From positions 16,865 through 80,864 of the forward strand of contig CAYLPP010000012.1 of NCBI GenBank assembly GCA_964385615.1: a stretch of DNA of 64,000 bases. The letters are read 5' to 3'. Shown one piece after another: positions 11,801 to 44,470 of the stretch; positions within the stretch are counted from its first letter, which is position 1, and every line of letters starts with the position of its first letter. The DNA comes from an uncultured bacterium (GTDB lineage: Bacteria; Omnitrophota; Omnitrophia; Omnitrophales; Aquincolibacteriaceae). The position numbers were made by a program, and so were the translations under genes. The notes under the pieces were generated by a model, which saw only the letters and a list, made by a program, of their open reading frames with translations, did no database searches and was not told the DNA's origin.

Positions 11801-14800
11801 ATTGATCCGGTCTTCCGTTCTGAGTTCGGAACGGGCCGGCAGCGCAATCACCTGAGACGCTGGATTCGCTTCCGACTCTGTACTGACTTCCGTCCCAGCC
11901 AAAATCAGCTGATCGCCGGACCGTTGGTAAAGATCCCAATCCACGACCGGTTTATCGAAAGCGTTTGTTCCAATATTGATGTTGTAAATCTCTCCGCCGT
12001 CACGAAGAGCGGTTCCCATCTGCTGGAGGGCTTTATTAATAGTTTCATCTGAAAAATAACTGACCCGGCCCCGGACCAGCAGGCCGGAGACACGCATAAA
12101 ATCGTATTGCTCCGGCAAAGGCAGAAAAATATCCTGGCGTTTAAACTCGAGAATGTCCGGATGCAGGCGGGCAAACTCTTCGGCTTCAGGGCTTAGCAGA
12201 CTCACATAAGGAAGCTTCTCTTTTCGAACACTATCCATTTTTCCAAAAATCCGGGTACCTGACTCAGCAAGCGCGTTCCAGGCGGTCGATCCCCGTTTCA
12301 CAATTCCGGATTTTTCGGTCACAATCTGAAGGAGTTCCCCTGAATCGCTAAAAAGATAAACCGCGAATTCTCCCTGCACCACATAAAAACCCAGAGTCCG
12401 GTCATAGCCGGTAATCTTGACGCCTTTATCCTGATAATGACGCGCCAGCTCCAGAGTGGTCACGCCTTCAGAAACCGCGAAATCGGCAATTTTTAATTTT
12501 TTATCTTTGTTTTCAGATTTCTCCATAAAACGGTCGAGCACCGCAAAGGTGCGGTCAAGCCTTCCCGGCCAGGTGCGTCTGTTGATAATATCCGCTTTTC
12601 CATCCGTTCCGCCTTCCCGAAAAATGACCGCCTGAAACTGAATTTGCCGGAGAATCTTCAGAAGGTCTTTTTGTTTTTTTCCTGAAAGTTTCGGATAAAG
12701 TTCTCGAAGGCGGGCGTAGGTCAATAAATTGCCGTTATAGGCGAAAATGGTCACTAAGAGTTCATATTCTTCAGAGTCCGCGTCCGCGGCCAGGAAAAAA
12801 GGAATTAAACTTTCGACATTCTGATTGTAAAGCTGTTCAGCCGCGCTCGCCATTTCCGAAAGCCGCGGTTTGGAAAATCTTTCAAGAGGAGATGTTCCTC
12901 TTAGCAATTCAGCTTCTTCACGCAAAAACTCGGGGAACGGCATCCGAAGCTCAGAACGAGCACCCTGGACTTTCTCGATTGAAATTTCAGGAAGACTTTC
13001 AGCCTGAGGAATCGTTCTTCTAAAATCGACGGGTCCTTCGTCCCAATTGATCAGCGCTTTAAAATTCAGGCCCGCGTAGAATTTCTCCGCGTCTTTACTT
13101 ACATTCTGAAGAATAAAGTTTTGAATTCCCTGCCGTTGAGCCAGCATCATAAGCGTGATCATCAAAGCCCGGCCGGCACCGCGGTATTGCCCGCGGACCG
13201 ATTCAGAAACATACAAAGCTTCCGAAAAAGCTGAGGCGATGCCATCTTCAGGCGCGTGCAGAAAAGAAAACGATTCCTGCATTTCAACCCGGTCGCGGTA
13301 AAAACGGGCGTGGGCAAAGCCCGCTTCCCGCGGGCCGGCTTCAGTCATTTGAAAAACTCTAAGCCGGTAACGCTTGAAGGTAATAACATCTTCTATCGAA
13401 AGCTGGAATTCGAAGACTGAACCATCATCCGCCGTAATGCTGAATTTTCCGCCGGTTTCAGGATCCAGAGAGTTCAGAATCTCAGCGCGCAGTTCAGAGC
13501 GCTTGGGATAAGTCAGGCCTTTCTGAACGCGGAAATTAAGAATCCTGCCTCCCTGGGGCTCGCGCTGACCGGGCGGAACATGAATATTAATGGAGTGAAG
13601 CGGGCCGGGTCTTTTAGTCTCACGGGTCAAATCGATTTTGATCAGCTTGGGTGAACGAAATAACGGAACCTGATGAGAAAATCTTTCAAAAGTTCCCGGC
13701 CTCTGCGCGTCTTCGTAAACAAACGTGATAATAACGGGCGGTTCCTGCTCAAAATCTTCTCCGGGATTCGGCGCCGCGGCCTCATTCCACAAGGCAATTT
13801 TAAATTCATCCATATCCCCCAACGGCCGGCCGTCTTCCCGGCTTAGAACAATATCCACCGGAGGAAGACCGAAACGGGTTGTAATCTGAAAACCGCTGGA
13901 AGGATCATGTTTAAACGGCACTGTATCAAAAAGAGGCGGCGTTAAAACCCGGACCGATGAATCAAACTTCTGAAGGTCTTCGTCGCCGAAATCATCCGTC
14001 AGGCTGACCGCAGGGTCCAGCACTTGAACGTTTACAGAGGGTTTGGGAAGATTTTTATTTCCCCCGCTTGAATCAAAATACCAGTATAAAACTCCGCCAA
14101 CCGCAAGCATTAACGATACAGCAAGAAGGAGAATTCCCCCAAAATTAAGGAACCTGGCTGAAACCACATCCGCCTGCTTCCGCGCGGAAGATTTCAGATT
14201 GGACTCTGCCAAAAGCAAATAGATCAGAAAGAGCCCTGAAAAAATCTTGCTGTTCTCCGGATCAATGGAAACTTCCGGAAGTGTGAGGGGCTGCTCCGCC
14301 TGCCCGCCGGACAAAGTAAAGTGAAACCGGACGCGCCCTTCTTCCGCGGTCAAATAAAACGGACTGGCTTGAGTTTCGTTTAACCCCAGTTCCCGGCGGA
14401 TCAATCCGTTTAATTTCTCCGCGAAATCTTCCGGGGAAGATCCTTTGATTTCCTCTCCCCCGTCATCATTTCCATCAAGCGGCTTCTTGCGCAATTCCAG
14501 TTTCAACTCGTCACCGGCCCACGCGCCCTTTTGAACAATCAACAAACGGTCCGGATCATATTGCAGGCTCCAAAGCGCGCCGTCGTGGTGCCCCATAACG
14601 CTGAATTTTTTCCATGCCGGATTGAGTTTCTTTAAAATCGAGTCGATTTCGGAGGCCGCCGTCCAGACAGGCTCCCAGTCTTTACGCTCCTTAAATATGG
14701 ACGTCTCCGATAAAACAGTAACGGCTCGGGCCAATTTCTCCTGATCCGCCTCACCCTGCATCCGCAATTCCGAACGGCGAAATTCAACGACAAGGAGTCC

Positions 14801-17614
14801 TGGTTTATCGCGGATATTAACCGCTTCAACTGAATCGACCGTAAATCCGTTTTGAGTCAAAAAAGCCCGGACTTCCTGTTCATCCTTGAACACCTGCCCC
14901 AGATGAGAGACAAGCGCGTCAATTTCCCGCGAAGGAACATTCAAAGCGATTCCCGCCTGTCTTAAAAAACCTTCGCCTGCCTCTTTTTCCTCAAACGGCG
15001 CGTAGCGGGAAACATAGTCAAAATATTCCTGATACATTTGCGCCAAAATACTATCGACGTCAGAACTGACCACGGTAAAAACAGGGTTCCACCGCTGTAT
15101 ATTCTGCTTCACAATAAACATCGCCTTTGCTCCCAGTTCAGCGGAATGAGGCTTCAAGCTTTTACTCATAGCGTCAAGATACGTTTGAGCGGTGCTTTCA
15201 TATTCATCCAAAGAAACCGCCCGATCTAAAAGGCGCCGGGTTAAGTTAAGAAATAAAATGCTCTGCCTAAGATCGTTAAACTGAAATTGACGGGAGGTAT
15301 CGATCGCAGAATTTTTAACATGAAATCCAAAAAGAAAACGGGCTCTGGGAGCGGCTAAACTTTTCAGCACTTCGAGAGTTTTTAAACGGTCCGTGTATTC
15401 AAAAGAATAAAGTCCGTAAATCAAATCCTGAGGGTCTTTCACGTCAAGTGAAGTCACCTCTTCAGCCGGTTTTACAATGACATTAAAACCCGGACGCATA
15501 ATGTTGCGTATCCGGCCCTTATCCAGCGAAGGTTCAATCACTGTGATCGGGTAATGCTGGTCTGAATCAAGCTCCTCTCTCAAATCCATAGAAACGGATA
15601 AATCTCCGTCGCCAACAGCCAGAATACGGGCCTGACCCCCGGCCAGAGAAACCAACCGCTTGACCATCGCCGTTTGTGAGATAACCGATACTTCATCCCG
15701 CGAGTCACGAGGCACTCCAACAAAATCATTAGTCAGCTCTCCCCAGGCCTGAATTAAACGATTTGAAGCCCGGAGTTCGGAGCGGGATTTAAGATCAAAC
15801 AGGTCCCGGGTTAGTATCGCCGCACCGCTGACACGAGGGATAATATTGGAAGATTTAAAGAGGTTGAGAACCTCAGGCGTGTTTAAACGATTTTGAGAAT
15901 CCAGAGTTTTCATTTTGAGAAGAAAATTTTCTATATTTTCTTTCCACTTTAGGCTGAAGCCGTCCGCAGACTCAGAACGAAAGACTTCGTCAAGATAACG
16001 GAGATACTGCCCCGCTTGTCCGGTTTTTTCTTCCGAAGCAAGATCGCGGATAATCTGATCCCGCCAAGTCTTCAGAAGTATGGGGTTTTCAGAGCCCGCC
16101 TTTAAAAGCTGATCCCGGAGAGCCCGGGTGAAACCCTCAGAAACCGACAGTTTGCCGTTTTCAGGCTTTAAATAACCTTTCCACGAAATCTCGCCGTTCA
16201 TCTGAGAGCGGTAAATGGAATCGTCGGGCATCGCGTTAATCGCGGGAATAACCGTGATATAAGAAATCCCGTTCTCCCGCAGCTGTTCCTTCAGTCCGGC
16301 GGTATGAAAACCGCCGGCAACCATCACGGCCTGATTTCGGCCGTTTTCACGCATCAGCCTCTGAAGATTCTTAAAGAAAGCGCGGTCACGCTGTTCCGCG
16401 TTTTGATAGAAAGCTGAGCTTGTTTCAAACCGCCCTTCTTTTTTAATCTTTTCCCAACCTTCACGGCTAAGTTCAAGGCGCACCGCTTTTTCCTGAAGGT
16501 CAAGCAGCTCACTCTCCCGGTCGAGCTTTCTTTCTTCGTTGTTGCGGAAAAGCTTTTCCTTCGCGTCACCCGCGTATTTTTCAAATTCGCGGAAAACCCG
16601 GGTTCCTTCCATTTCGCGCAGACGCGCTTCATGCCTGGCCTGACGCTGAAGTTCCGGTGAAAGCGAAAAAGGAATACTGTATTTTGAAGCTGTTTCTTTG
16701 AGATACATCAGAAAAGACCGGGCGGACAGCGTTGAGGTTTTAAAAGCCTGGAGGGATTCGTTGAATTTCCTCAGATCTTCCTCAGAGAATTTGTTCAAAA
16801 AGGAGGTGAAACTGTCAGAAATTTTTAACACCTTCGTTTCAAATGAGGCATCTGCCGGCATCTGGATTTCCTTGATGAGAGCTTCAAGATCTGATCCTTT
16901 TTCCGGCGGCAAGATAAGAGCGAGCTGTTCAAGTATCTGCGAAAAATTTTCTGCGTTTTCTGAAAACTTCCGCAGGGACTGGTCGAGATCAAAAAGTGGC
17001 TGAGAATAAATTTCCTTTTTCTTTTTTTCAAGGACTTCAGCGCGTGCGTGATTCTCTTTTGAAAGAACCGGTTCTTCAGCCATCGTCTGAGAGTAGAGAT
17101 TTAAGCCGTCTTCGTAAAGATTCCAGTCTTCAGCCCCGTGATAAACCGCGGGCGTGTTCCCCAAAAGAGCGGCCGCGGCTCCGCCGGGCAATTCCCCCTT
17201 TTCCATGAACGCTGAAAGAACTTTTTCAAGCTGACGCTTTTCCGGAAAATTTTTAAAAATCCGGGCATCCAGCTCTGAAGAAGCGCCTTCCAAAGCCACG
17301 ATTGAAATCCCGTAATTTTCTTCAAAATGGCTGATCAGATTCTGAATGTTCTTTTGCGCTTCCGGCACTGAGTGAGCGTCTTGAATAAGAACGACGGTCT
17401 GGCCGGACGAACCCTGGTAGGAATCTTCAATGCTTCCACTCTCGCCCGGAACTGAAACCTGTCCAATTTCCCCCGGAAACTTAGCTCCAGCAACTGAGGA
17501 AGGACCCGCCGGTGCCGCTATAGCTGGAAAAGGCTTCGCTCCCGTGAGCAGAAAGCTCAGAGACAAAGCTAGCGCGATTGTTTTATGTAAAAAATTTTTG
17601 ATTTTTTGAGGCAT
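2807..17614 (-). CDS. giant (4935 aa) secreted/membrane-associated multidomain protein. It has an N-terminal signal peptide and a TraB/GumN-like region, then several class-I SAM-methyltransferase-like modules, a GNAT-like module and an HprK-like P-loop module. Fifteen R-S-E-x-R linker motifs punctuate it.
   Basis: A single uninterrupted ORF of 14.8 kb. The N-terminus MPQKIKNFLHKTIALALSLSFLLTGAKPFPAIAAPA looks like a signal peptide. Motifs recognised by eye:
- TraB/GumN-like: VVLIQDAHS ... AVMVAGGFHTAGL.
- MTase motif I and post-I-like: ARILAVGDGD, KIADFAVSEGVTT...LRDGGEIY, ALVLGPGSGDY...PSGSYLIV, VDLVISVGLF...INRVLKPGGRALI.
- GNAT-like: YRGAGRALMITLMMLAQRQGIQNFILQNVSKDAEKFYAGLNF.
- HprK-like: LHAGLVQDSVTGKTGIIMAPSDTGKSTLAYYLSNRSGAPAFKILADDDE.
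- Hydrophobic TM stretch: FGGILLLAVSLMLAVGGVLYWYF.
Domain calls are from motif inspection only. Confidence 0.85.
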   Translation of the reverse strand: MPQKIKNFLHKTIALALSLSFLLTGAKPFPAIAAPAGPSSVAGAKFPGEIGQVSVPGESGSIEDSYQGSSGQTVVLIQDAHSVPEAQKNIQNLISHFEENYGISIVALEGASSELDARIFKNFPEKRQLEKVLSAFMEKGELPGGAAAALLGNTPAVYHGAEDWNLYEDGLNLYSQTMAEEPVLSKENHARAEVLEKKKKEIYSQPLFDLDQSLRKFSENAENFSQILEQLALILPPEKGSDLEALIKEIQMPADASFETKVLKISDSFTSFLNKFSEEDLRKFNESLQAFKTSTLSARSFLMYLKETASKYSIPFSLSPELQRQARHEARLREMEGTRVFREFEKYAGDAKEKLFRNNEERKLDRESELLDLQEKAVRLELSREGWEKIKKEGRFETSSAFYQNAEQRDRAFFKNLQRLMRENGRNQAVMVAGGFHTAGLKEQLRENGISYITVIPAINAMPDDSIYRSQMNGEISWKGYLKPENGKLSVSEGFTRALRDQLLKAGSENPILLKTWRDQIIRDLASEEKTGQAGQYLRYLDEVFRSESADGFSLKWKENIENFLLKMKTLDSQNRLNTPEVLNLFKSSNIIPRVSGAAILTRDLFDLKSRSELRASNRLIQAWGELTNDFVGVPRDSRDEVSVISQTAMVKRLVSLAGGQARILAVGDGDLSVSMDLREELDSDQHYPITVIEPSLDKGRIRNIMRPGFNVIVKPAEEVTSLDVKDPQDLIYGLYSFEYTDRLKTLEVLKSLAAPRARFLFGFHVKNSAIDTSRQFQFNDLRQSILFLNLTRRLLDRAVSLDEYESTAQTYLDAMSKSLKPHSAELGAKAMFIVKQNIQRWNPVFTVVSSDVDSILAQMYQEYFDYVSRYAPFEEKEAGEGFLRQAGIALNVPSREIDALVSHLGQVFKDEQEVRAFLTQNGFTVDSVEAVNIRDKPGLLVVEFRRSELRMQGEADQEKLARAVTVLSETSIFKERKDWEPVWTAASEIDSILKKLNPAWKKFSVMGHHDGALWSLQYDPDRLLIVQKGAWAGDELKLELRKKPLDGNDDGGEEIKGSSPEDFAEKLNGLIRRELGLNETQASPFYLTAEEGRVRFHFTLSGGQAEQPLTLPEVSIDPENSKIFSGLFLIYLLLAESNLKSSARKQADVVSARFLNFGGILLLAVSLMLAVGGVLYWYFDSSGGNKNLPKPSVNVQVLDPAVSLTDDFGDEDLQKFDSSVRVLTPPLFDTVPFKHDPSSGFQITTRFGLPPVDIVLSREDGRPLGDMDEFKIALWNEAAAPNPGEDFEQEPPVIITFVYEDAQRPGTFERFSHQVPLFRSPKLIKIDLTRETKRPGPLHSINIHVPPGQREPQGGRILNFRVQKGLTYPKRSELRAEILNSLDPETGGKFSITADDGSVFEFQLSIEDVITFKRYRLRVFQMTEAGPREAGFAHARFYRDRVEMQESFSFLHAPEDGIASAFSEALYVSESVRGQYRGAGRALMITLMMLAQRQGIQNFILQNVSKDAEKFYAGLNFKALINWDEGPVDFRRTIPQAESLPEISIEKVQGARSELRMPFPEFLREEAELLRGTSPLERFSKPRLSEMASAAEQLYNQNVESLIPFFLAADADSEEYELLVTIFAYNGNLLTYARLRELYPKLSGKKQKDLLKILRQIQFQAVIFREGGTDGKADIINRRTWPGRLDRTFAVLDRFMEKSENKDKKLKIADFAVSEGVTTLELARHYQDKGVKITGYDRTLGFYVVQGEFAVYLFSDSGELLQIVTEKSGIVKRGSTAWNALAESGTRIFGKMDSVRKEKLPYVSLLSPEAEEFARLHPDILEFKRQDIFLPLPEQYDFMRVSGLLVRGRVSYFSDETINKALQQMGTALRDGGEIYNINIGTNAFDKPVVDWDLYQRSGDQLILAGTEVSTESEANPASQVIALPARSELRTEDRINAGERDWIPEMKQLFQEEKFEPKKGVYLASGKDNETLSLMVSLFPGLETIYLVDPSYSELARISVGFSIDWLRSGDFEIENYWDFSFYKSWEETLKKGEDLTLTLKHRVTGREVKVVLVPKKYEEAEVQGDFSIVKNAGWGGDLAHETAFWNKILEATAEGGKVLVSQAAIYARAEPQASVAERKRILIPLGRIRKESWVSKERDPWDPVSGYEWAVFRKQASARSESRLVTQEKISAVIEEVAAHSGLTDFDDQTQQRLIEKLKSLKLEAGKTALVLGPGSGDYLPVVLEKLGLKTSVLEPDSEYLSFQVELHRGFGLDQEIPAYQSYSELKGKHYDYIFALAMMNPVYRSVEYSLYSNFAPAAVFPYLIQRMRDIFLTALKSISPSGSYLIVNDLGETLISAYKQAVPFIADRANLRFDLREDMNVDEFSIHTAYLKESRTGVVYFVSPRSEVRALNDSDQAVLVREYPKTEKSKGNEIALLVDGPEFSEEFKDLHVILVRSEMPTPYGYDEDQYFLLVFDRTSRELAAKASLAYRENGRDWEVLAPDLKSVITGKGYMQRAIKLLLRSGAVQRWYSANYRSADARKMYEAIGRSSDYSMSEVPGYGEDILALVTLAPGVRPTGEFSRFFKTPVPGGSSAEKLLHDLKRAKEILSAWDGERSGIFDTVKDEFLAGQFTRALNLLGDLAYYLRNHWEDHSLGVMGRPDEILDLIESSSTAIRVLSRSESRTLEPIDRRYGVRLDTGVYVYNDPAVISVLNTALKERQAGLSVIPAGDKAFQNVGTIFHQAGYENILFPQSSGWVVFINGRTLAGTSEKERQILLLSAAFYASLETLRPDEQDHILQYTNNLFQKFLDASRKNQMTVEAVIPTIQLASAMVVPHLTGLGALKEAEFARKGGEFVNRIVPAWKERYERFLSTWDEKKPFVDLEKENLADALAAKGVTEIQLEGQSQPISLSSETARQTLKQIQDLMREGRMHFEIDVTGTLANITMVRSELRADQSASPAITDFNGFPLGKAQVAVLKKYKVDWFLDVIGNGDNSLRKDPYSFDPNFPWFDGLARPEKPVYETIRSLMWQTVIKKAETEKDLEGVQELTRWQDRPVAILHAGLVQDSVTGKTGIIMAPSDTGKSTLAYYLSNRSGAPAFKILADDDENTYVMLNQQGQPVAVGNLLPETVVTKYKHIGEGPAAEKPLPVLEDDDVHPVEFVIFLDSSRALGDVKTHEGISGAAEESILDDAYVSVKGMKREAFLTSFAKIPVLTLGHQLPAGYSRELSDDETFSKDAKTVGEWVSKFPARSEARMNSSIHMAHFQLTAKQIERKLGISVDELLSGKIVDIGLETDSEGLFAPDILTPMNLVTELRKQGKDIVGLDPNAPAEPAGFYVKGVAQKMPFEDSSVDLVISVGLFDPAYWYQIIDKPVMAYYETALEINRVLKPGGRALIIPYSRIDDEFFRAFRTISFEVAPIDEKVGEYLFTKPARSEVRSDKSISSSSLQITAQDFSEIDDLYGWVEQNTGENDKILVLPFWLFQGAIADKATFRQTMVAQLLPLHWKMPPGGPYKVFIGKKFSEGQTIYSFLISEISLGQEKHPASPSGTTLVLHNTNIRYLPTILQHGLYAMPLRYIFHNGNIKPPSDGVTLYFDLPNNWLVSETGLDYALSAENDQLGASISDEAAAIAPLGFKGLKVAEEAGFLRRIDMSRLNIDATQSDLKERYSRGDINESAFLELSEMLEKLKRNNESPAASERNSALRSEMRARTEEEWRTYLTKLVAKLEKGQAPTPENVAAVSNGELDAAAIRGAMSHHKISRSSVGMVRERIIQRSREEWVVYLRGLAQGLDPKLRRTVANVARASGLTSRQIRKAIRDHNIPYSEIGIEQGGLGRPRNDARSEIRVDYSKLINSVNRQWNSLDGKGYFRIARQIYENLSDNGKRLYFHNYDSRAAIFESVHGTGFESEEDYHSELSDADYAQLVLEGLALLVLDGPLNAREQAEQYKNAGQIVLLDQLNAKQFAALELILTKFGKKFPQNNKLTLSELFSMAFSYFHGDDAVSDYIDFSRRFRYAPGEYAYTLTAFSLLAAAFHVQGSLEFHSWLDNEDVEAFSPDVLWVIAQLSKDQLAEVTKENQGSVRKLLKISLLKVIFSLSPVLAGPGKKRFTGELAKTRRELAGQPYFDELEAAIQANAGKLYEWHQDLSREYAAGLPFLLAFQWDFFSGYYSRNSRETSVQRSLSLMELIQAADQPGIQPALENTPIGAVSDNAPVKFWNGIKKTRTRKVMHDWEKLGNFLNSFTRSEVRAAPEETRILEQFLLNVSFAREIIDQTVPENLREAAMAVYVLEQLATAKRVSAVSEPINFKPDVQTYLIRLLKKEGILKDGYADRTADALPAMRVKQTSAPATLKTQSIRGIAVEYFPEAKASVLVPSVVRVVNEVNQRYLTSDAQIAEYRKQLSNLTASGNFKVSNFPANPAVLRNRFISRDRLEKYVKVRDFLKTKGYQGRVVNPLGGGDIETASYLTDSSYYRIFDALPFEGTLDEKTLRLLREVYQSEKAALGYNSTLVLGAIGFAKAPLLWELEAMGVDMGKVKITKDAAADRYFIDYEWSYDGNSAPTPRRIEYNQREFEAGETAPEGVFNPEDGIYLSKANLDGGIFKNEELPAVVVSFQDAYRVGYRKYSIKDILGIQPQANSGSSYAQIEAGAVLVKDQVSEDDAWGDLRTELSARSEVRIAPKADAVKLVAEALAPGNESRAVAVQIDESVIADLIAQYRKNKEALRLKMLAQADVSRFDAVQAVMNDLDSGLDQISGAVSRKFAVGLVLPDGKIDDHFLAGFLSGLDKGVVGELLKDGRVPEVFRKGLSDLAIQVRDVHVEKTNAIQSEQAEVPAAFLGSKIAINEMFLPLFLNPADLEALQRKNPEAARWIGKVVSRALIHMADLSQDENYRGKPQEIRDELLRRLNLFERDFQSLITLTQSGGRLAFGVNTALAEALFEEKVSRVIGSAA

Positions 17615-37654: not shown

Positions 37655-38287
37655 ATGTGCTTCGGGCCGATACCCAGTTTCGCCAGCAGTGCCGTCTTAA
37701 CCACAGCCGGCGCCGTCACCCTCAAAACCACCCGCTCCCGAAATGAGCTGGTAATCGCGGCTTTTCCCCTTCTTTTCGGCATTCAGCAATTCATTGAAGG
37801 TCTGATCTGGATAGGCGTTAAAGGCGGACCTTTGCAGGCGTGGCTCAAACCTCTGACCGCGGCTTTTCTTTTTTTCGCTTATTTAATCTGGCCCATTATT
37901 TCACCAATCGCCGTTTATCTTTTGGAGCCTGATCTAAAAAGACGCCGGATTCTTTCCGTTTTCATACTGATGGGCGTCGGAACCGCTATGTATCTTGCCT
38001 GGTTCTTCTTGCAGTATCCGCACGAAGTCACGGTCGTAGGGCATAGCCTGCGTTATCACATCAAAAAATTTTCAACGCTGAACGGATTTTTTTATCTGGG
38101 AGCAACTTACGTTTCCTACCTGATTTCAAGCCACAAGAAACTCTGCGCCCTTGGAGTCATCAATATTATTTTCGCGGGGTTTTCACGCTGGATTTACTGG
38201 AAGACTTTCGATTCGGTGTGGTGTTTCTTCGCGGCTCTTTTAAGCGTGGGGATTTTCTTTTTTCTGCGTTCTCTGCGCAAAAAATAA
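37655..38287 (+). CDS. hypothetical integral membrane protein
   Basis: 210 aa with about 6 predicted TM helices. No recognisable motif. Confidence 0.5.
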   Translation: MCFGPIPSFASSAVLTTAGAVTLKTTRSRNELVIAAFPLLFGIQQFIEGLIWIGVKGGPLQAWLKPLTAAFLFFAYLIWPIISPIAVYLLEPDLKRRRILSVFILMGVGTAMYLAWFFLQYPHEVTVVGHSLRYHIKKFSTLNGFFYLGATYVSYLISSHKKLCALGVINIIFAGFSRWIYWKTFDSVWCFFAALLSVGIFFFLRSLRKK

Positions 38288-38295
38288 CTTGCTGA

Positions 38296-39072
38296 TTAAT
38301 TCCATCCGCCACCCCGCACATTCTTCCTGCGGTAGAGCTGACGGCGAGACTCTTCGTAACGGTTCAAATCATCCTGATAGCTTTGCTGTTGTCTGGAAAT
38401 AGCCTGCTCGAGCGAGGAAGTGTCCTGCCCTGCCGCTCTCTGCTGGTCTAACTGCGCCTGCATATTTCTGAGGTCGATTTCAGAACTCGCCATGGACCGG
38501 CGGTTACGGTCCACGCTGTCGTAATAATCCTGAAGATCGGCATCATTTTGGGGGTATTGCTGTTGGCGGTAAAAACCACGATTCTGATTGAACCCGTTGT
38601 TGTAGCCATTATTGTAACCGTTGTTATAACCATTCTGATTGTAGCCATTCTGCTGAGCCAGCTGTCTTTTGCGCCAGGCTAATTGCTGACTGCTCTGCTG
38701 ATAACGGTTTAAATCGTCCCGGTAGCTTTGCTGAAGGCTGGCGATAGTCTGCTGATCCGCGGAAGTGTCGAGGCCGGCCTGCTGATGCGCCTGCATCTGG
38801 CGGTAAGCTTCGTTGAGGTTGCGCTCTGAGCTTTGCACCGAATTGCGGTTCCGGTTCAAGCTTTCATAGTCCTGATCCAACACGGAATTGTCCTCATAAT
38901 AACCGTCATTGTAGCCATTGTTATAGCCGTTGGACTGAGAGTTCGAGGAGGAACCGCCCAGGACCTGCCCCAGAATATCCATGAATTTGTCACTTTTAGC
39001 GTAAGCAGGACTCACTGCCAACGCCATGAAAACCCCTGCCAAAAAGACCTTCTTAATCCAGCCTGCGCGCAT
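38296..39072 (-). CDS. secreted low-complexity protein with NGY/Q-rich internal tandem duplication
   Basis: Signal peptide MRAGWIKKVFLAGVFMALAVSPAYA. Two ~100-aa repeats, each starting with (NGYN)n and followed by a Q-rich helical stretch (...RNRNSVQSSERNLNEAYRQMQ... / ...RNRRSMASSEIDLRNMQAQLD...). Confidence 0.6.
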   Translation of the reverse strand: MRAGWIKKVFLAGVFMALAVSPAYAKSDKFMDILGQVLGGSSSNSQSNGYNNGYNDGYYEDNSVLDQDYESLNRNRNSVQSSERNLNEAYRQMQAHQQAGLDTSADQQTIASLQQSYRDDLNRYQQSSQQLAWRKRQLAQQNGYNQNGYNNGYNNGYNNGFNQNRGFYRQQQYPQNDADLQDYYDSVDRNRRSMASSEIDLRNMQAQLDQQRAAGQDTSSLEQAISRQQQSYQDDLNRYEESRRQLYRRKNVRGGGWN

Positions 39073-39160
39073 ACCAACTCCCTGGGAATTCCCCGTTTGA
39101 GGGAGGGATTCTATAAGAAAAACCCTTAAATTTGAAAAGAAAATTTAGACCCCGGAAACC

Positions 39161-39409
39161 TTACCCGCCGGGGCCTTTGTAGGTGAAAATATCTTCGAGG
39201 GTGAATTTTTTTTCGAGGGAGCAGTCATTAAGCGCGCGCAAAACCCTGAGTTGAGTCCGGGCCTTGATCCGGCGCCCTTTGCGGGCTTTAAGAACCATGC
39301 GGAAAGTCAAATTGTCCGTCGATTTGTCCACAAGATCGGCGTCTGAAAGCATCAACTCTTTCATAATTTTATCCAGCGGTTGAACGCCTTCATCCATTTC
39401 AGGATTCAT
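39161..39409 (-). CDS. conserved hypothetical small protein, paralog A (82 aa)
   Basis: MNPEMDEGVQPLDKIMKELMLSDADLVDKSTDNLTFRMVLKARKGRRIKARTQLRVLRALNDC... It is about 85% identical in protein to ORF 42781-43023. The start overlaps the O-methyltransferase stop (ATGA). Confidence 0.6.
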   Translation of the reverse strand: MNPEMDEGVQPLDKIMKELMLSDADLVDKSTDNLTFRMVLKARKGRRIKARTQLRVLRALNDCSLEKKFTLEDIFTYKGPGG

Positions 39410-40041
39410 TTTTTAACCGCCAGCGTGATCCCATCACGAACCGTCAGCATCACGGTTTCAACCCGCTTGTCGCGCGCTACGCGGCGGTTGAAAGCTGCGA
39501 TATGCCGGTCGCTTTCTTCTTTGGGGTTTAAAACCCGTCCGCTCCAAAGCACATTGTCAGCGAGCAGAAAACCGCCACGCTTCACCCGAGGCACGCAAAG
39601 CTCCCAATATTGAATATAATTATTTTTATCCGCGTCAATGAAGACCATGTCAAAAGCGCCTTTGAGTTTCTTGATAGTTTCAACAGCCGGGCCCAATTTA
39701 AGTTCGATTTTTTTACCGTGCGGGCTTTTTTTCCAGTGCTCTTTGGCAATCCGCGTATTTTTGGGATCAATATCGCAGGTAATGAGTTTGCCGCCGGCCG
39801 GAAGCCCCTCCGCCATCGCAAGCGCGCTGTAGCCGGTAAAGGTGCCAATCTCAAGAATGCGTTTAGCCTTTGAGACCTTAACCATCAACCGCAGGAAATG
39901 GCCTTCCAGATGGCCGACCTGCATTTGAGGCATAGCGGTTTTAGCGTAAGTCGCCTTCGCCAGCGCCTTAAACAGCGCGGTTTCAGCCGTGCTGTGCTTT
40001 CCCGCGTATGCTTCCAGCTTTTGATCCACTATATGGGTCAT
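39406..40041 (-). CDS. class I SAM-dependent O-methyltransferase (caffeoyl-CoA OMT/YrrM family)
   Basis: ILEIGTFTGYSALAMAEGLPAGGKLITCDID ... MVFIDADKNNY ... GGFLLADNVLW motifs. Confidence 0.85.
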   Translation of the reverse strand: MTHIVDQKLEAYAGKHSTAETALFKALAKATYAKTAMPQMQVGHLEGHFLRLMVKVSKAKRILEIGTFTGYSALAMAEGLPAGGKLITCDIDPKNTRIAKEHWKKSPHGKKIELKLGPAVETIKKLKGAFDMVFIDADKNNYIQYWELCVPRVKRGGFLLADNVLWSGRVLNPKEESDRHIAAFNRRVARDKRVETVMLTVRDGITLAVKK

Positions 40042-40121
40042 GGGAAAGGTATTGTACCACCGCGGGCGCTTAATTTCCTTTTTGCGATTCAGAACAAGTT
40101 ATCGTATGATAAAACCCAATT

Positions 40122-40925
40122 ATGGAAACCGTTCAACAGCTTCGCGATATTTGCCAGCCCCGGCACAAAAAAGACGGGGTCTTTCATTTCAGTTTACCCC
40201 GTTTATTCAGCATTTATTTGACCCGCTCCCTGCTTGAGAAAAACATTCCCTGCAAACTCATCACCGCCGCTTTATCAGCAACCATGCTGATCGCCTGCCT
40301 CTTTTTGCTTTCAGGCTCCTTACCCCTCATCCTGATCGCCGGGCTTCTGAGCGCGGGCTGGTCTGTTCTTTACTGCTCAGCGGAAGAAATCAGACTTTAT
40401 AAAAAATCCGGCCTTACTTCAATTTACGCCGAAACCATTTTTCAATATTCCATGCAATTGCTCGCGCCTCTTTGCCTGTCTGTCGGCATTTTAAATTTAA
40501 CGGGAAGCAACCTCTGGGTGGTCATAGGCATCGGCACAGCTCTGGCGGAAATTCTATTACTCGTCATGCACCACGCGCAGGAAAGCGCGCTGTTGAGAAA
40601 AATCAATCATCAGAGAAATGACTACGCTTTACGCAATACCGCGGAAACAGGCGGAAAGAAAGAACCCGAAAGCCCTTCGCTCACGCATAAAATCATAACC
40701 GCCGTGAGTCAGAACGTGCAGTATCCAGCCGTTGGAAGCTGGTTTTTTATTTTTAGTCTTTTGGCTTTCTTTTCGGGAACGGCCGGCGCTCTTAAAATCT
40801 TCTTACTTCTGACAGGCTCTCTCTCAGGCGCTGTGGCTTTTTACACCATTGCCCGCAAAATCAAAAACAGCGACCCCGACAAGCAATTCTCACAGCTTTT
40901 CACATCCAAAAATACCGGCGCCTAA
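40122..40925 (+). CDS. hypothetical membrane protein
   Basis: 267 aa with multiple TM segments. No recognisable domain. Confidence 0.5.
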   Translation: METVQQLRDICQPRHKKDGVFHFSLPRLFSIYLTRSLLEKNIPCKLITAALSATMLIACLFLLSGSLPLILIAGLLSAGWSVLYCSAEEIRLYKKSGLTSIYAETIFQYSMQLLAPLCLSVGILNLTGSNLWVVIGIGTALAEILLLVMHHAQESALLRKINHQRNDYALRNTAETGGKKEPESPSLTHKIITAVSQNVQYPAVGSWFFIFSLLAFFSGTAGALKIFLLLTGSLSGAVAFYTIARKIKNSDPDKQFSQLFTSKNTGA

Positions 40926-41425
40926 TTAGGTTTGAGTTTTTCCTGATACCGGATGTCACCGGCAGGTGAAAAAATAAGAGCTTCGGCAGGAGCGTGAAAC
41001 AACGCCGCCATCTTGACCGGATGGGGCGCAATCTTTTTCAGCTGAGCCAGGATCACTTCATCGGGAGGAGGGTGGTTAAATTCAAAAATCATAGCCACAG
41101 ACAGGATCTTGTCGATGCGGTGAAGAATATACCACTTGCCGGTCGTCTCCCCGTTCAGCGCCGGATCGTAACTTCTTTCGTTATAAAGGCACTGGGTGGT
41201 GAAGCCATCCTTTTCCATCAGCTTCCCCCCATCCTTGCACCAGATTTCCTTCTCATACCGCCGGACAATCGTGAGGTTCATCGTAGTCGCTTGGCTGGGA
41301 AACGTTTGCTTCGAGACCAGATAGTAGAAATCCGTGACAGGCTTGGGGTGACAACCGCTGAGCAGAGGCATACAGAGGGTAATGATTAAAAGAGCCGGGG
41401 CCGGCCATTTCCCTGTTTTCGACAT
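40922..41425 (-). CDS. hypothetical lipoprotein
   Basis: N-terminus ...LLIITLCMPLLSGC has a lipobox (LSGC). Confidence 0.5.
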   Translation of the reverse strand: MSKTGKWPAPALLIITLCMPLLSGCHPKPVTDFYYLVSKQTFPSQATTMNLTIVRRYEKEIWCKDGGKLMEKDGFTTQCLYNERSYDPALNGETTGKWYILHRIDKILSVAMIFEFNHPPPDEVILAQLKKIAPHPVKMAALFHAPAEALIFSPAGDIRYQEKLKPN

Positions 41426-41447
41426 GGCGGCTATTGTATCACTAATT

Positions 41448-41711
41448 TTAGCCAGCCAGGCGGTCAGTATGCTCAGCGATCCAAAGTTTGATCAATGAAG
41501 TGCGCGGCACTCCAATGCGATCCGCTTCCCTATCCACTTTTTTGAGAATCTCACCCGGAATATCAATATTGATTCTTTGAACCGGGTAAACAACGCGAGC
41601 CGACTTCAAATCAAGATGCTCGGTAATATCTTCCTTGCCTTCGTCGAATTTCTTGTCAAATTCCTCAGCTGAAATTTTATTTTTCTTTTTCATTTTTAAA
41701 ACTCTCCTCAA
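41448..41711 (-). CDS. brnA: BrnA antitoxin (RHH/CopG-like)
   Basis: SAEEFDKKFDEGKEDITEHLDL...VDREADRIGVPRTSLIKLWIAEH matches the BrnA pattern. It overlaps upstream brnT. Confidence 0.7.
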   Translation of the reverse strand: MRRVLKMKKKNKISAEEFDKKFDEGKEDITEHLDLKSARVVYPVQRINIDIPGEILKKVDREADRIGVPRTSLIKLWIAEHTDRLAG

Positions 41712-41958
41712 AAATTTTTATCTCTTTTTCCCAGCTTCTCCTGACAGAAATAATGCGGGCCGCCTCTTTCCGCCAGGTAAAAACGCACGAGTAATACTTC
41801 CCCTGCCAAATGCCAATAAAGAGAAATCGCTCTTCATTTTCCGATCTGGCTGAAACCATCACGCCTGGAAGCATCCACATTTCCTGCGCTTCTTCAAAAG
41901 AGATGCCATGCTTCACTTTATTTGCTTCAGACTTAGCAATATCATACTCAAATTCCAT
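41677..41958 (-). CDS. brnT: BrnT ribonuclease toxin
   Basis: MEFEYDIAKSEANKVKHGISFEEAQ ... RIISVRRSWEKE is characteristic of the BrnT family. Confidence 0.75.
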   Translation of the reverse strand: MEFEYDIAKSEANKVKHGISFEEAQEMWMLPGVMVSARSENEERFLFIGIWQGKYYSCVFTWRKEAARIISVRRSWEKEIKIFEESFKNEKEK

Positions 41959-42085
41959 ATTAATTATATACCTTTTTTATACAAAAATTGATATTTGAGG
42001 GCTAATTTGACGTAACTGCTTTTAAGGGAATATCTTAGGAGGGATTAACTAAAAGGGAACCGCCCGCAGACGGTGTTTTTGAACT

Positions 42086-42102
42086 GGTCGCAAATTGCGA
42101 CC
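42086..42102. repeat. fourth copy of the same palindrome family, 3 bp downstream of the ORF6N stop
   Basis: GGTCGCAAATTGCGACC is a perfect 17-bp palindrome with the same core as the intragenic copies. Confidence 0.7.
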
Positions 42103-42104
42103 GC

Positions 42105-42698
42105 CTAATGAAACCCGATTTTCCGGCGGGAAGGTTCTGAGGGTCTCATCAGCTGGCGAATCGCGGTGAAGATGGCTCTGATTTCTTCATCATGCCTTTC
42201 GGTCTTGCGCTCCAGCTGGTCCAGCTTGGCCGAAAGCTCTTTATGGGCTGATAAAATCTGCCTCAACTTCACAAACGCTCTCATAATCGCGACATTAACA
42301 TCAATAGCCCGGTCGCTCTTCAAAACCCCCGAGAGCATGGCAACCCCCTGCTCTGTAAAGACATAGGGTAAATACTTACTGTGCCGCCCTCTTCCTTCTC
42401 TGTCTAAGGTCACATTTTGTGACCTTAGACGTTCCATTTCAAAGGTCGCATTTTGCGACCTTAAAGAGCCCAGACTTGAGGTTGCAAATTGCAACCTCAA
42501 GTTATCCAGTTCTTCTTTGGTTAGTTGAAACATAAAATCTTCGGGGAAGCGCTTGGGGTTGCGTTTTACCTGCTGGTTTAGCTGTTTGGTGGTAACTCCA
42601 TAAAGATGCGCCAGGTCAGAATCGAGCATGACCCGGTGACCACGGATAATGAAAATGCGCCCTGCGATTTGTTCGTGAGTTAATGTTTTGGAAGCCAT
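42105..42698 (-). CDS. ORF6N (KilA-N-like) domain protein with C-terminal coiled coil, carrying an in-frame repeat insertion
   Basis: IRGHRVMLDSDLAHLYGVTTKQLNQQVKRNPKRFPEDFMFQLTKEE ... KYLPYVFTEQGVAMLSGVLKSDRAIDVNVAIMRAF is the ORF6N signature. The insertion encodes LRLQFATSSLGS-LRSQNATFEMER-LRSQNVTLDREG (3 x 12 aa). Confidence 0.8.
   Translation of the reverse strand: MASKTLTHEQIAGRIFIIRGHRVMLDSDLAHLYGVTTKQLNQQVKRNPKRFPEDFMFQLTKEELDNLRLQFATSSLGSLRSQNATFEMERLRSQNVTLDREGRGRHSKYLPYVFTEQGVAMLSGVLKSDRAIDVNVAIMRAFVKLRQILSAHKELSAKLDQLERKTERHDEEIRAIFTAIRQLMRPSEPSRRKIGFH
42404..42501. repeat. three tandem 36-bp units, each containing a 21-27 bp perfect palindrome, inside the ORF6N coding frame
   Basis: Palindromes: CTAAGGTCACA-TTT-TGTGACCTTAG (42404-42428), AAGGTCGCA-TTT-TGCGACCTT (42442-42462), CTTGAGGTTGCAA-A-TTGCAACCTCAAG (42475-42501). 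Centres are spaced exactly 36 bp apart. Confidence 0.8.
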
Positions 42699-42780
42699 GC
42701 TTCCAAAATACAGAATTTCAGGAGAGGATCAATGAAGACTTGAAGAAATTAAACAGAAAGTGCCGTTTCCGCACACTGGG

Positions 42781-43023
42781 TCACGGACCCAAATAAGTGA
42801 AGATATCTTCGTGAGTGAATTTCTTCTCAGGCGAGCAGTCATTGAGCGCCCGCAAAACCCGCAGTTGAGTGCGCGCCTTGATCCGGCGCCCTTTGCGGGC
42901 CTTTAAAACCATACGGAAAGTCAGATTATCCGTCGATTTATCCACCAAATCCGTATCAGAAAGCATCAGCGCCTTCATGACCTTGTCCAGCGGCTGAACC
43001 CCCTCATCCATTTGCGGATTCAT
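42781..43023 (-). CDS. conserved hypothetical small protein, paralog B (80 aa)
   Basis: MNPQMDEGVQPLDKVMKALMLSDTDLVDKSTDNLTFRMVLKARKGRRIKARTQLRVLRALNDC... It is about 80-85% identical in DNA to 39161-39409. Confidence 0.6.
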   Translation of the reverse strand: MNPQMDEGVQPLDKVMKALMLSDTDLVDKSTDNLTFRMVLKARKGRRIKARTQLRVLRALNDCSPEKKFTHEDIFTYLGP

Positions 43024-43074: not shown

Positions 43075-43623
43075 CTAATCCTTAAACTCTTTAAAAAATT
43101 GATCTAAGTAAGTCAAGGTCTCTTTCACGCGTGCTTTATTACCTCTTTCAAATGCCTGAGGCAATGGACGCAAAATGTATCTTTCGTATTTTCCTGCCAA
43201 ACTTGGAAATATCTCTAAAATAGTCTCTTTTATTGTTAATTTTCGCTGTTTCGCATACGTCTTAATTTTATCCACATATGGCTGAGGCAAAGAAACCTGT
43301 CTTGTTTTAGGGTTTTTTAACTGCCCAGTAAAATCAGGCGATCTCTTATGCCAAATTTCAGCGTAGTCTATTTCCCTTTTATCGTAATCAATTTTCAAAT
43401 CTTTGTAATTCATTCGCCCCGTAACGACTCTATTCCGCATTGATTCAGAATGACGACGGGTAGAAAAATTTTTTTTGATAAAAAAATGAACGGTTTGTCG
43501 GCTAATTGGCTTTTTATACTTATTTTCTATCTGTTCTGCGATTTCTTTGGCAGACATTCTTTCATTTATGTACCAATTCTCAATTTCCGCTAAAGGCACA
43601 AGATTTCCTAGGATTTTTCGCAT
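43075..43623 (-). CDS. hypothetical protein with N-terminal HTH-like segment, in low-GC island
   Basis: 182 aa. MSAKEIAEQIENKYKKPISRQTVHFFIKK resembles a helix-turn-helix. Local GC is about 36% against about 51% for the flanks. Confidence 0.5.
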   Translation of the reverse strand: MRKILGNLVPLAEIENWYINERMSAKEIAEQIENKYKKPISRQTVHFFIKKNFSTRRHSESMRNRVVTGRMNYKDLKIDYDKREIDYAEIWHKRSPDFTGQLKNPKTRQVSLPQPYVDKIKTYAKQRKLTIKETILEIFPSLAGKYERYILRPLPQAFERGNKARVKETLTYLDQFFKEFKD

Positions 43624-43675
43624 AGACTTCCCGATTTGAACGCAACGCTGAATGTGTTATGGCCAGTCTTAGAAT

Positions 43676-44470
43676 TCATTTTTTCTGACTCACAAACTCC
43701 CAGATATTAAAGCCTTCCCTACTTAAACCTGTTGGTTTTGACAGATCTTTTTTACTCAACCTTTGAATAAATTCGATCATTTCGCTTTTCGATTCACCCC
43801 TCTTAGATTTGCTGGTGCCCTTTTTATTCCAAACAAATGAGATTGCACCAACCAACAAATCTACCAACTGCAGGAGGTTATGGTCTTTAGCTTTCCCTTC
43901 GGAGATAGAACAATGTTCTAAATAACTTTCAACTCCATTCGTTTTTCTCATAAAGCGCCAGTTTGTGGTTTGCTCTAAAATCTCAACACCTCGATTGAAG
44001 TCAGAGGAGTACCTATCAATTATTATTTCAAAAAAATGATCCCCCTTATTTTTCATCAATCCATCACATAAGAAAGTACAATAAAATTTAACATACCCAG
44101 TCAAAGCATCGCCCCCCATGTAAACCTTGTGATTTAAAGGGTACTTAACCGTATCGACAACTAAACAACGAAAACGAATTCGACCGATATTTTCCAAAAA
44201 AAGCCGAAGGAATTCTTTATAACCTTCTCGATACCGTCCTTCCGTAGGAATTTTCTCCCACTTCAGCTCGTGCATTAAGCGGTATTTGGTTTTGATATCT
44301 GCTAGTTTTTTTTCGATCTTCTGGATTATTAAATCTGATTCATCAGGTTTTGTTGGGATGAAATATACAGCCCCCAGCACAAAGTATCTATGCCCTGATT
44401 GAGATGATTCATCGCAAAAGGCGATGATTTTCTTATCAGCGTGAATTTTGTCAGGTAAATTCAGATTCAT
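43676..44470 (-). CDS. DUF3800 family protein
   Basis: 264 aa. The two diagnostic DUF3800 motifs are present: N-terminal D-E-S (IIAFCDESSQSG) and C-terminal Q-x-x-D (NLLQLVDLLVGAI). Low GC. Confidence 0.65.
   Translation of the reverse strand: MNLNLPDKIHADKKIIAFCDESSQSGHRYFVLGAVYFIPTKPDESDLIIQKIEKKLADIKTKYRLMHELKWEKIPTEGRYREGYKEFLRLFLENIGRIRFRCLVVDTVKYPLNHKVYMGGDALTGYVKFYCTFLCDGLMKNKGDHFFEIIIDRYSSDFNRGVEILEQTTNWRFMRKTNGVESYLEHCSISEGKAKDHNLLQLVDLLVGAISFVWNKKGTSKSKRGESKSEMIEFIQRLSKKDLSKPTGLSREGFNIWEFVSQKK

Follow-up and report, generated by a model that had tools for sequence, protein, structure and literature searches.

Stand-alone helix-turn-helix (HTH) proteins of the XRE/Cro-C1 type are about 70–80 amino acids (aa) long and include 434 Cro. 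The same fold is found in the controller (C) proteins of restriction–modification (R-M) systems, which precede and control their endonuclease gene, and in antitoxins of toxin–antitoxin (TA) systems such as HipB and HigA. A small DNA-binding gene directly behind a housekeeping gene is represented by the dusB–fis operon, an arrangement of E. coli and Gammaproteobacteria. Here, we describe a small protein, given the working label X, which is encoded by two open reading frames (ORFs) in a 64-kb stretch of the genome of an uncultured Omnitrophota bacterium (contig CAYLPP010000012.1; the whole stretch, 64,000 nucleotides (nt), is called the window below). X represents a new, unnamed family of a well-known fold class, and the window contains two paralogues of old origin:

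39161–39409, minus strand: copy A of X, 82 aa; ORF with a family-profile match (E = 5e-36)
42781–43023, minus strand: copy B of X, 80 aa, the extra paralogue; ORF with a family-profile match

We propose, with a probability of roughly 0.7, that X is an uncharacterized XRE-fold gene of the superphylum named after Planctomycetes, Verrucomicrobia, and Chlamydiae (PVC) which is normally single-copy, and that this genome carries a local old duplicate around which cassettes were inserted later.

The proteins of copies A and B are identical at 73 of 80 residues (91%; BLASTP, E = 3e-54). A preliminary description of the window, made from the letters alone, had placed the two ORFs correctly and recognized them as diverged paralogues, but its estimate of about 85% protein identity was too low. 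Its range of 80–85% for the DNA agrees with the measured 82% across 239 nt (81% across the first 240 nt). The pair is the sole direct repeat of at least 40 nt in the window, and a flank-inclusive alignment indicated that the similarity begins ~10 nt 5′ of the ATG and stops at the stop codon. The 46 nucleotide differences fall 9/4/33 at codon positions 1/2/3, and the Nei–Gojobori method gave nonsynonymous and synonymous divergences of dN = 0.058 and dS = 1.65 (dN/dS = 0.035). Copies A and B are genuine protein-coding paralogues from an old duplication, both under strong purifying selection, and the preliminary description had rightly taken the duplication as old and both copies as maintained; the duplication is old because the synonymous sites are near saturation (dS ~1.65). 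They are also each other's closest relatives (dN of 0.058 versus at least 0.10 to three relatives with DNA). All seven substitutions lie at residues 4, 15, 18, 24, 65, 71, and 78, and residues 25–64, which include the predicted HTH and form the best-conserved region of the family, are the same in both copies. Since the HTH regions are identical, both copies would recognize the same molecular target and differ mainly in transcriptional context. A family-profile search found no third copy of X in the window.

The AlphaFold2 model of the protein (79 sequences; predicted local distance difference test score (pLDDT) 85.5 and predicted template modeling score (pTM) 0.73) shows a five-helix λ-repressor/XRE-type HTH fold with helices at residues 11–18, 23–29, 36–44, 50–63, and 71–74. 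In a Foldseek search against the PDB, nearly all of the top 50 matches were λ-repressor-like/XRE HTH proteins or domains. The best match was the E. coli λ-repressor-like protein 28tn (TM-score of 0.64 query-normalized and 0.77 target-normalized; root mean square deviation (rmsd) of 2.0 Å, 67 columns), followed by C.BclI, C.Esp1396I, C.AhdI, HipB, 434 Cro, and λ cI, and the viral structure matches (BFVD) that carry names were mostly XRE/HTH. X is thus predicted to have an XRE-type HTH fold, within which it forms its own sequence family. The consensus of this family is G-x-QPLD-x2-M-x2-L-x-L-x-N-x-DLV-x-AS-x-EQLTHK-x-V-x-KARKGRRLT-x3-Q-x-KIL-x-ALN ... DLF-x-Y, and conservation peaks in the predicted recognition helix and the basic turn after it (LT-x-K-x-V-x-KARKGRR). 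The preliminary description had regarded the protein as basic and probably nucleic acid–binding, and the modeled fold is of this type. The fold, the charge, and the basic conserved helix 3 with its turn together suggest that X binds nucleic acid. A conserved, perhaps general, target is more likely than a private operator, given the cross-phylum conservation of the recognition helix and the recurrent coupling of X to an N-terminally reduced Rho (see below).

Homologues of X were few in a word-indexed search (8 clusters only). When 1.84 billion representatives were scanned in full with HMMER, 158 homologues were returned (50% clustering), and a profile search returned 1,206 family clusters at 90% identity, of which none carries a Pfam domain and the named ones all bear the label "hypothetical protein". 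The named or binned carriers belong to Omnitrophota, Verrucomicrobia (Verrucomicrobiota), Kiritimatiellales including Pontiella (Kiritimatiellota), Sedimentisphaerales including the isolate Anaerobaca lacustris (Planctomycetota), and Victivallales (Lentisphaerota); one X-bearing metagenome-assembled genome is labelled Elusimicrobia. The distribution of the family is the PVC superphylum, with named members from five PVC-group phyla. The preliminary description had named ubiquitous single-copy housekeeping homologues as the case that would speak against it, and the family partly answers to this: its members seem to be single-copy, frequently with core genes as neighbors, yet they occur in PVC-type lineages only and may not be universal there. 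The longer relatives P0028, P0049, P0077, P0085, P0107, P0083, and P0124 (190–270 aa) have an N-terminal X domain followed by a partial DUF1398 match (profile positions ~62–114 of 119), which reflects either a fusion or a gene-calling merger.

The genomic habit of X was analyzed in 108 other loci, retrieved with the narrower family alignments, the broader ones being too diverse. Flanks of 3.5–10 kb per side were requested, and many contigs were shorter. The orientation of neighbors was scored with a simple ORF caller, and representatives of the neighbor clusters were scanned against Pfam and NCBIfam. Within the retrieved DNA, every one of the 108 loci has exactly one copy of X, and no related locus yielded a further one; the pair in the window is therefore unusual. 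The gene upstream of X is co-oriented in 93 of 101 loci. The same holds for 41 of the 49 distinct upstream families, which bears out the earlier impression that X tends to trail unrelated genes. X lies within 20 nt of the upstream gene in 26 upstream families, with a stop/start overlap in 10, and the downstream genes fall into 59 families.

The Rho termination factor is the largest upstream group. Its gene lies directly 5′ of X in 32 loci (L034, L063, L068, L097, and 28 others; e.g. L063:2419–3719), with a 4-nt ATGA overlap in 24 of them, and the gene downstream of X in these loci is variable (malic enzyme or malate dehydrogenase in 20 of the 32). The X-linked Rho scores ~370 bits against NCBIfam NF006886 (cut-off 315), matching only profile positions ~127–413, and has a basic low-complexity N-terminus in place of the canonical RNA-binding domain. 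Dus is encoded upstream of X in 6 loci, and the order dus–X–uvrA is conserved in Pontiella/Pontiellaceae genomes (L011, L012, L013, and L018). Other genes found 5′ of X encode a YacP-like NYN protein, a 3-methyladenine glycosylase, a GFO/IDH/MocA oxidoreductase, a ferredoxin-domain protein, a GntP permease, and a BamHI-type endonuclease. On this basis, X might be an accessory factor of the transcription machinery with a link to Rho-dependent termination, or else a nucleoid protein resembling Fis, with two copies here for dosage or differential expression. The tight junction with rho in front of a variable downstream gene, the missing canonical domain of the linked Rho, the resemblance of dus–X–uvrA to E. 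coli dusB–fis, and the cross-phylum conservation of the recognition helix are all in keeping with such a role. However, X trails dozens of other genes too, it matches neither the Fis-type HTH_8 nor the Rho_N domain, and rho and dus, as well as uvrA, mdh, and the malic enzyme gene, are absent from the window. We consider this role rather unlikely; it is compatible with the explanation proposed above and differs from it solely by naming a target. Quite unlikely, in our estimate, is that X is a dedicated nucleic acid–binding partner of the PVC termination machinery, which supplies or modulates substrate recognition for the N-terminally reduced Rho. If true, the trailing-gene habit and the duplicate in this genome would reflect tying the dosage of X to ongoing transcription and translation.

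The preliminary description had seen in X a cassette-associated regulator or a mobility/addiction component, and this suggestion is not supported: X has no constant partner, it recurs in core-gene contexts (rho–X and dus–X–uvrA), it occurs once per locus in the 108 loci, it belongs to a PVC family of more than 1,200 clusters, and copies A and B are poor recombination substrates. A related explanation is that X is an orphan or cassette-linked XRE antitoxin or addiction regulator in the style of HigA, HipB, or MqsA, which neutralizes or represses a neighboring toxic gene. The XRE antitoxins HipB and CHU_2935 are indeed among the structural matches, and X lies near BrnTA in the window, near an R-M system at L026 (Pfam matches), and near pairs that look BrnTA-like at L008 and VapBC-like at L010 by reading of the ORF translations only. 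Against this stand the changing partners (49 upstream and 59 downstream families) with which X forms no recognizable toxin module, and the identity of the commonest ones, namely Rho, Dus, malic enzyme, and malate dehydrogenase. Among the families identified in the 108 loci by scanning cluster representatives, none is a toxin, and no constant integrase or cassette partner was found. In addition, the BrnT of the window is already paired with BrnA, X has no PADLOC match, and its recognition helix shows strong conservation between phyla, in contrast to the fast-evolving TA regulators. An antitoxin function of X is therefore very unlikely.

The genes between and beside the two copies are as follows, with the hairpin at copy A and the G + C content (GC) of the reference regions:

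39125–39176, minus strand: terminator-like hairpin at the copy A stop codon, from RNA folding; 9-bp GC-rich stem, then U-rich UAAAUUUUCUUUUC
39406–40041, minus strand: O-methyltransferase, class I S-adenosylmethionine-dependent (Methyltransf_3); Pfam PF01596, E = 3e-68; GC 0.51
within 40122–41425, plus strand: 267-aa membrane ORF; no Pfam match; native GC of 0.48
within 40122–41425, minus strand: 167-aa lipoprotein-like ORF; no Pfam match; native GC of 0.51
41448–41958, minus strand: BrnT/BrnA type II TA pair; BrnT_toxin E = 2e-20; GC 0.40/0.42
42105–42698, minus strand: ORF6N-domain protein, immediately downstream of copy B; Pfam ORF6N E = 2e-37; GC 0.48
43075–44470, minus strand: block of DUF3800 and a 182-aa ORF, between aspC and copy B; low GC of 0.37/0.35
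GC reference: whole window 0.49; aspC 0.56; copy A 0.49; copy B 0.51

The interval between copies A and B is 3,371 nt long and contains the O-methyltransferase, the 267-aa membrane ORF, the 167-aa lipoprotein-like ORF, BrnA, BrnT, and ORF6N. The preliminary description had named all of these but the O-methyltransferase as the genes in between, and had called the segment accessory, which applies to BrnTA with its foreign GC of 0.40–0.42 but not to the remainder, whose GC of 0.48–0.51 is native. It had rightly described copy A as coupled to the O-methyltransferase: the stop codon of the latter overlaps the copy A start in an ATGA at 39406–39409, and this junction recurs on an independent short contig (L028). 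The hairpin at the copy A stop codon is suggestive of the end of an O-methyltransferase–X unit, with a z-score of just −1.4, and copy B is followed by a weak counterpart. Copy B had been taken for the last gene of a DUF3800 operon. Its start lies 51 nt past the end of the 182-aa ORF, but its GC of 0.51 differs from the 0.35–0.37 of the genes in front, and because of this contrast the "operon" is better regarded as an insertion in front of copy B than as its owner. Without the low-GC block, copy B would sit directly behind aspC, that is, in the usual trailing position of the family. BrnTA and the DUF3800 + 182-aa block are separate foreign insertions, as the inserts differ in GC, and copy B is native.

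The same arrangement could be explained if copies A and B bounded a mobile or excisable island as direct repeats, recombination between which would add or remove the 3.4-kb interval. Both copies do lie on one strand, as direct repeats around TA and candidate defense genes, and the genes upstream of X are wholly different between the window and its closest long relative, L001. The repeats themselves argue otherwise: at 82% identity and with a longest common exact run of 26 nt, they are not near-identical, and a dS of 1.65 makes them far older than typical insertion scars. No integrase or recombinase was found in the window, the sole hint being a Pfam Recombinase match at E = 0.01 on the 182-aa ORF. 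No tRNA or att-like repeats lie near the interval (the only candidates are a tRNA-Gln far off at 17.9 kb and some short repeats at chance level), and no other flanking repeats were found. The unlike GC of the inserts implies separate events, and three short contigs assembled independently from the same strain carry these junctions too, a comparison that reveals no sign of excision but is not a population test. An excisable island bounded by the two copies is thus highly improbable.

L001 carries an X with 84% identity to copy A, and the comparison with it indicates which copy is ancestral. It requires one more gene of the window:

37655–38287, plus strand: DUF6629 membrane protein, conserved neighbor of copy A

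This protein is 54–69% identical to those of the X-adjacent DUF6629 genes in L001, L005, and L006. The order X – one variable gene – DUF6629 – CitMHS – 641-aa ORF is common to copy A of the window and L001 (tblastn), and all seven genes found upstream of X in L001 are missing from the window (tblastn). Owing to the X–DUF6629 synteny in L001, L005, and L006, copy A is assigned as the positional orthologue and copy B as the extra one. The variable slot between X and DUF6629 (window positions 38296–39072) contains a 258-aa Gln/Asn/Tyr-rich secreted or lipoprotein-like ORF with an internal duplication (78-nt repeat, 345 nt apart, 76% identity), and in L001 it holds a glycoamylase-family gene.

Here, we propose a history of the locus based on these comparisons. 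By default, a genome of this family would have one chromosomal copy of X, trailing and often translationally coupled to whichever same-strand gene is upstream. In this genome, X would have been duplicated locally long ago. Copy A would have held the ancestral spot beside DUF6629–CitMHS and behind the O-methyltransferase, and copy B would have come to lie behind aspC. Mobile cassettes (BrnTA, and the DUF3800 + 182-aa block) would later have landed in and beside the interval, and it is these later insertions that would make the locus look like a pair of cassettes with X as the last gene of each. Most likely, copies A and B share one function, that of a nucleic acid–binding factor whose target is general or widely conserved, and receive two different transcriptional inputs; nucleic acid binding, the order of events, and the functional equivalence of the copies are the parts of this proposal that we infer.

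Several observations weigh against the proposal of a normally single-copy XRE-fold gene. Both copies of X gave zero matches against Pfam, NCBIfam, PHROGs, and PADLOC, and no HTH-family sequence model was significant. HTH_26 weakly matches 5 of the 79 relatives (best E = 0.014). The alignment of the family profile with 434 Cro by hhalign has a non-significant probability of 0.15%, with helix 4 aligned in the expected register, and the Foldseek E-values, at 0.14 or worse in the PDB search and 0.06 or worse overall, are as weak as one expects for a domain of ~70 residues. The fold class therefore rests on the predicted structure, the sequence-profile support being marginal. As to the survey, its 80 metagenome loci were chosen for matching one subfamily alignment best; the counts, including the Rho-linked ones, are therefore not unbiased frequencies, and the copy number of X was assessed within a few kb of each homologue rather than genome-wide. 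The TA-like and R-M neighbors at L008, L010, and L026 may reflect a loose association of X with mobile cassettes or insertion hotspots. Searching the X profile against the PDB sequences gave only chance-level matches, to ribosomal protein eL34 (E = 0.1 or worse).

The other genes of the region were annotated as follows. The O-methyltransferase has a partial match to PADLOC mad2 of the "mads" methylation-associated defense (E = 6e-19, residues 22–162), which is probably generic methyltransferase-domain similarity. BrnA was assigned because of a sub-threshold CopG_antitoxin match (E = 8e-6; 26.9 bits, below the 28-bit gathering cut-off) and its position overlapping brnT. The ORF6N protein matches PADLOC PDC-S05 (E = 2e-62) and also PHROG anti-repressor families; its gene, of native GC, is a candidate single-gene defense gene by the PADLOC match alone. 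Four near-perfect palindromes with the core GGTYRCAAWWTGYRACC lie at 42087–42502, three within the ORF6N coding sequence and one just past its stop codon. In translation, the three inside ORF6N give a triplicated LRSQN(A/V)T-like peptide, which lengthens the Pfam match. Either operator-like sites or the expansion of a repeat could account for the GGTYRCAAWWTGYRACC palindromes. The DUF3800 protein matches Pfam DUF3800, the PADLOC candidate defense model PDC-M04A (E = 1e-29), and PHROG 3732. The 182-aa ORF retrieved only itself among 5.8 billion clusters and has no homologue in viral contigs. An Rfam scan of 37–46 kb returned nothing. Farther away, a single ORF of 4,935 aa occupies 2807–17614 on the minus strand.

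At the level of the window, the finding is modest: the repeated gene is a duplicated chromosomal gene with cassettes landed around it, not a marker of mobility, addiction, or cassettes. The annotation of the BrnTA/ORF6N/DUF3800 islet is affected by this chromosomal reading of X. At the level of the family, the coupling of rho and X together with the conserved reading helix is a lead worth noting. A small-HTH family of more than 1,200 clusters with neither a Pfam nor an NCBIfam model is a reasonable candidate for family definition, and a biochemical first look at X would be reasonable in a cultured host, Anaerobaca lacustris or a Pontiella species.

X was finally compared with described proteins. 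Neither copy matches a known anti-phage defense protein in PADLOC, although the neighboring DUF3800 and ORF6N proteins do. The PVC protein Minf_1886 is unrelated to X. Nucleic acid binding was reportedly proposed for the PVC signature protein by Lagkouvardos et al. in 2014. The "signature protein" CT421.2 (51–53 aa; Gupta and colleagues, PMC3444138) is also small, basic, and confined to the PVC group, but its published alignment (MSRHRSYGKSVKGETKRNVLKRFERIEVLRKLGRW...; supplement of PMC2474590) is unrelated to X in sequence. The R-M controllers C.AhdI, C.BclI, and C.Esp1396I are similar to X in size and fold and are among its best structural matches, and at L026, X lies 79 nt downstream of a methyltransferase and BamHI/BglII-type endonuclease pair. 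Unlike C proteins, X follows unrelated genes, and at L026, too, its position is downstream of the endonuclease. Neither copy A nor copy B has R-M genes beside it in the window, and none were seen at the other loci except L026 (Pfam-annotated loci and cluster representatives); X is accordingly not assigned as a C protein. The XRE antitoxins (HipB, HigA, and CHU_2935-like) share the fold and size of X, which lies near TA genes in some loci, but X differs from them in having no conserved toxin partner and in its cross-phylum conservation with core-gene synteny. The likeness to Fis would be one of function only: X is a small HTH protein directly behind dus in Pontiellaceae, or behind another housekeeping gene, with which it would be co-expressed, whereas Fis belongs to a different fold family (HTH_8), unmatched by X. 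The closest counterparts are the stand-alone XRE/Cro-C1-type proteins (HTH_3/HTH_26), such as 434 Cro and 28tn, with which X shares a length of ~70–80 aa. The X model superposes at 1.6–2.5 Å on many of the best chains, with agreement in helix order and register, and X likewise has a conserved Gly (Gly45) after the recognition helix. Unlike these proteins, X has no significant profile match, its own N-terminal G-x-QPLD and C-terminal DLF-x-Y motifs, and an unusually basic, highly conserved KARKGRR turn; it is restricted to the PVC group and usually trails another gene instead of lying beside a divergent operator/promoter.

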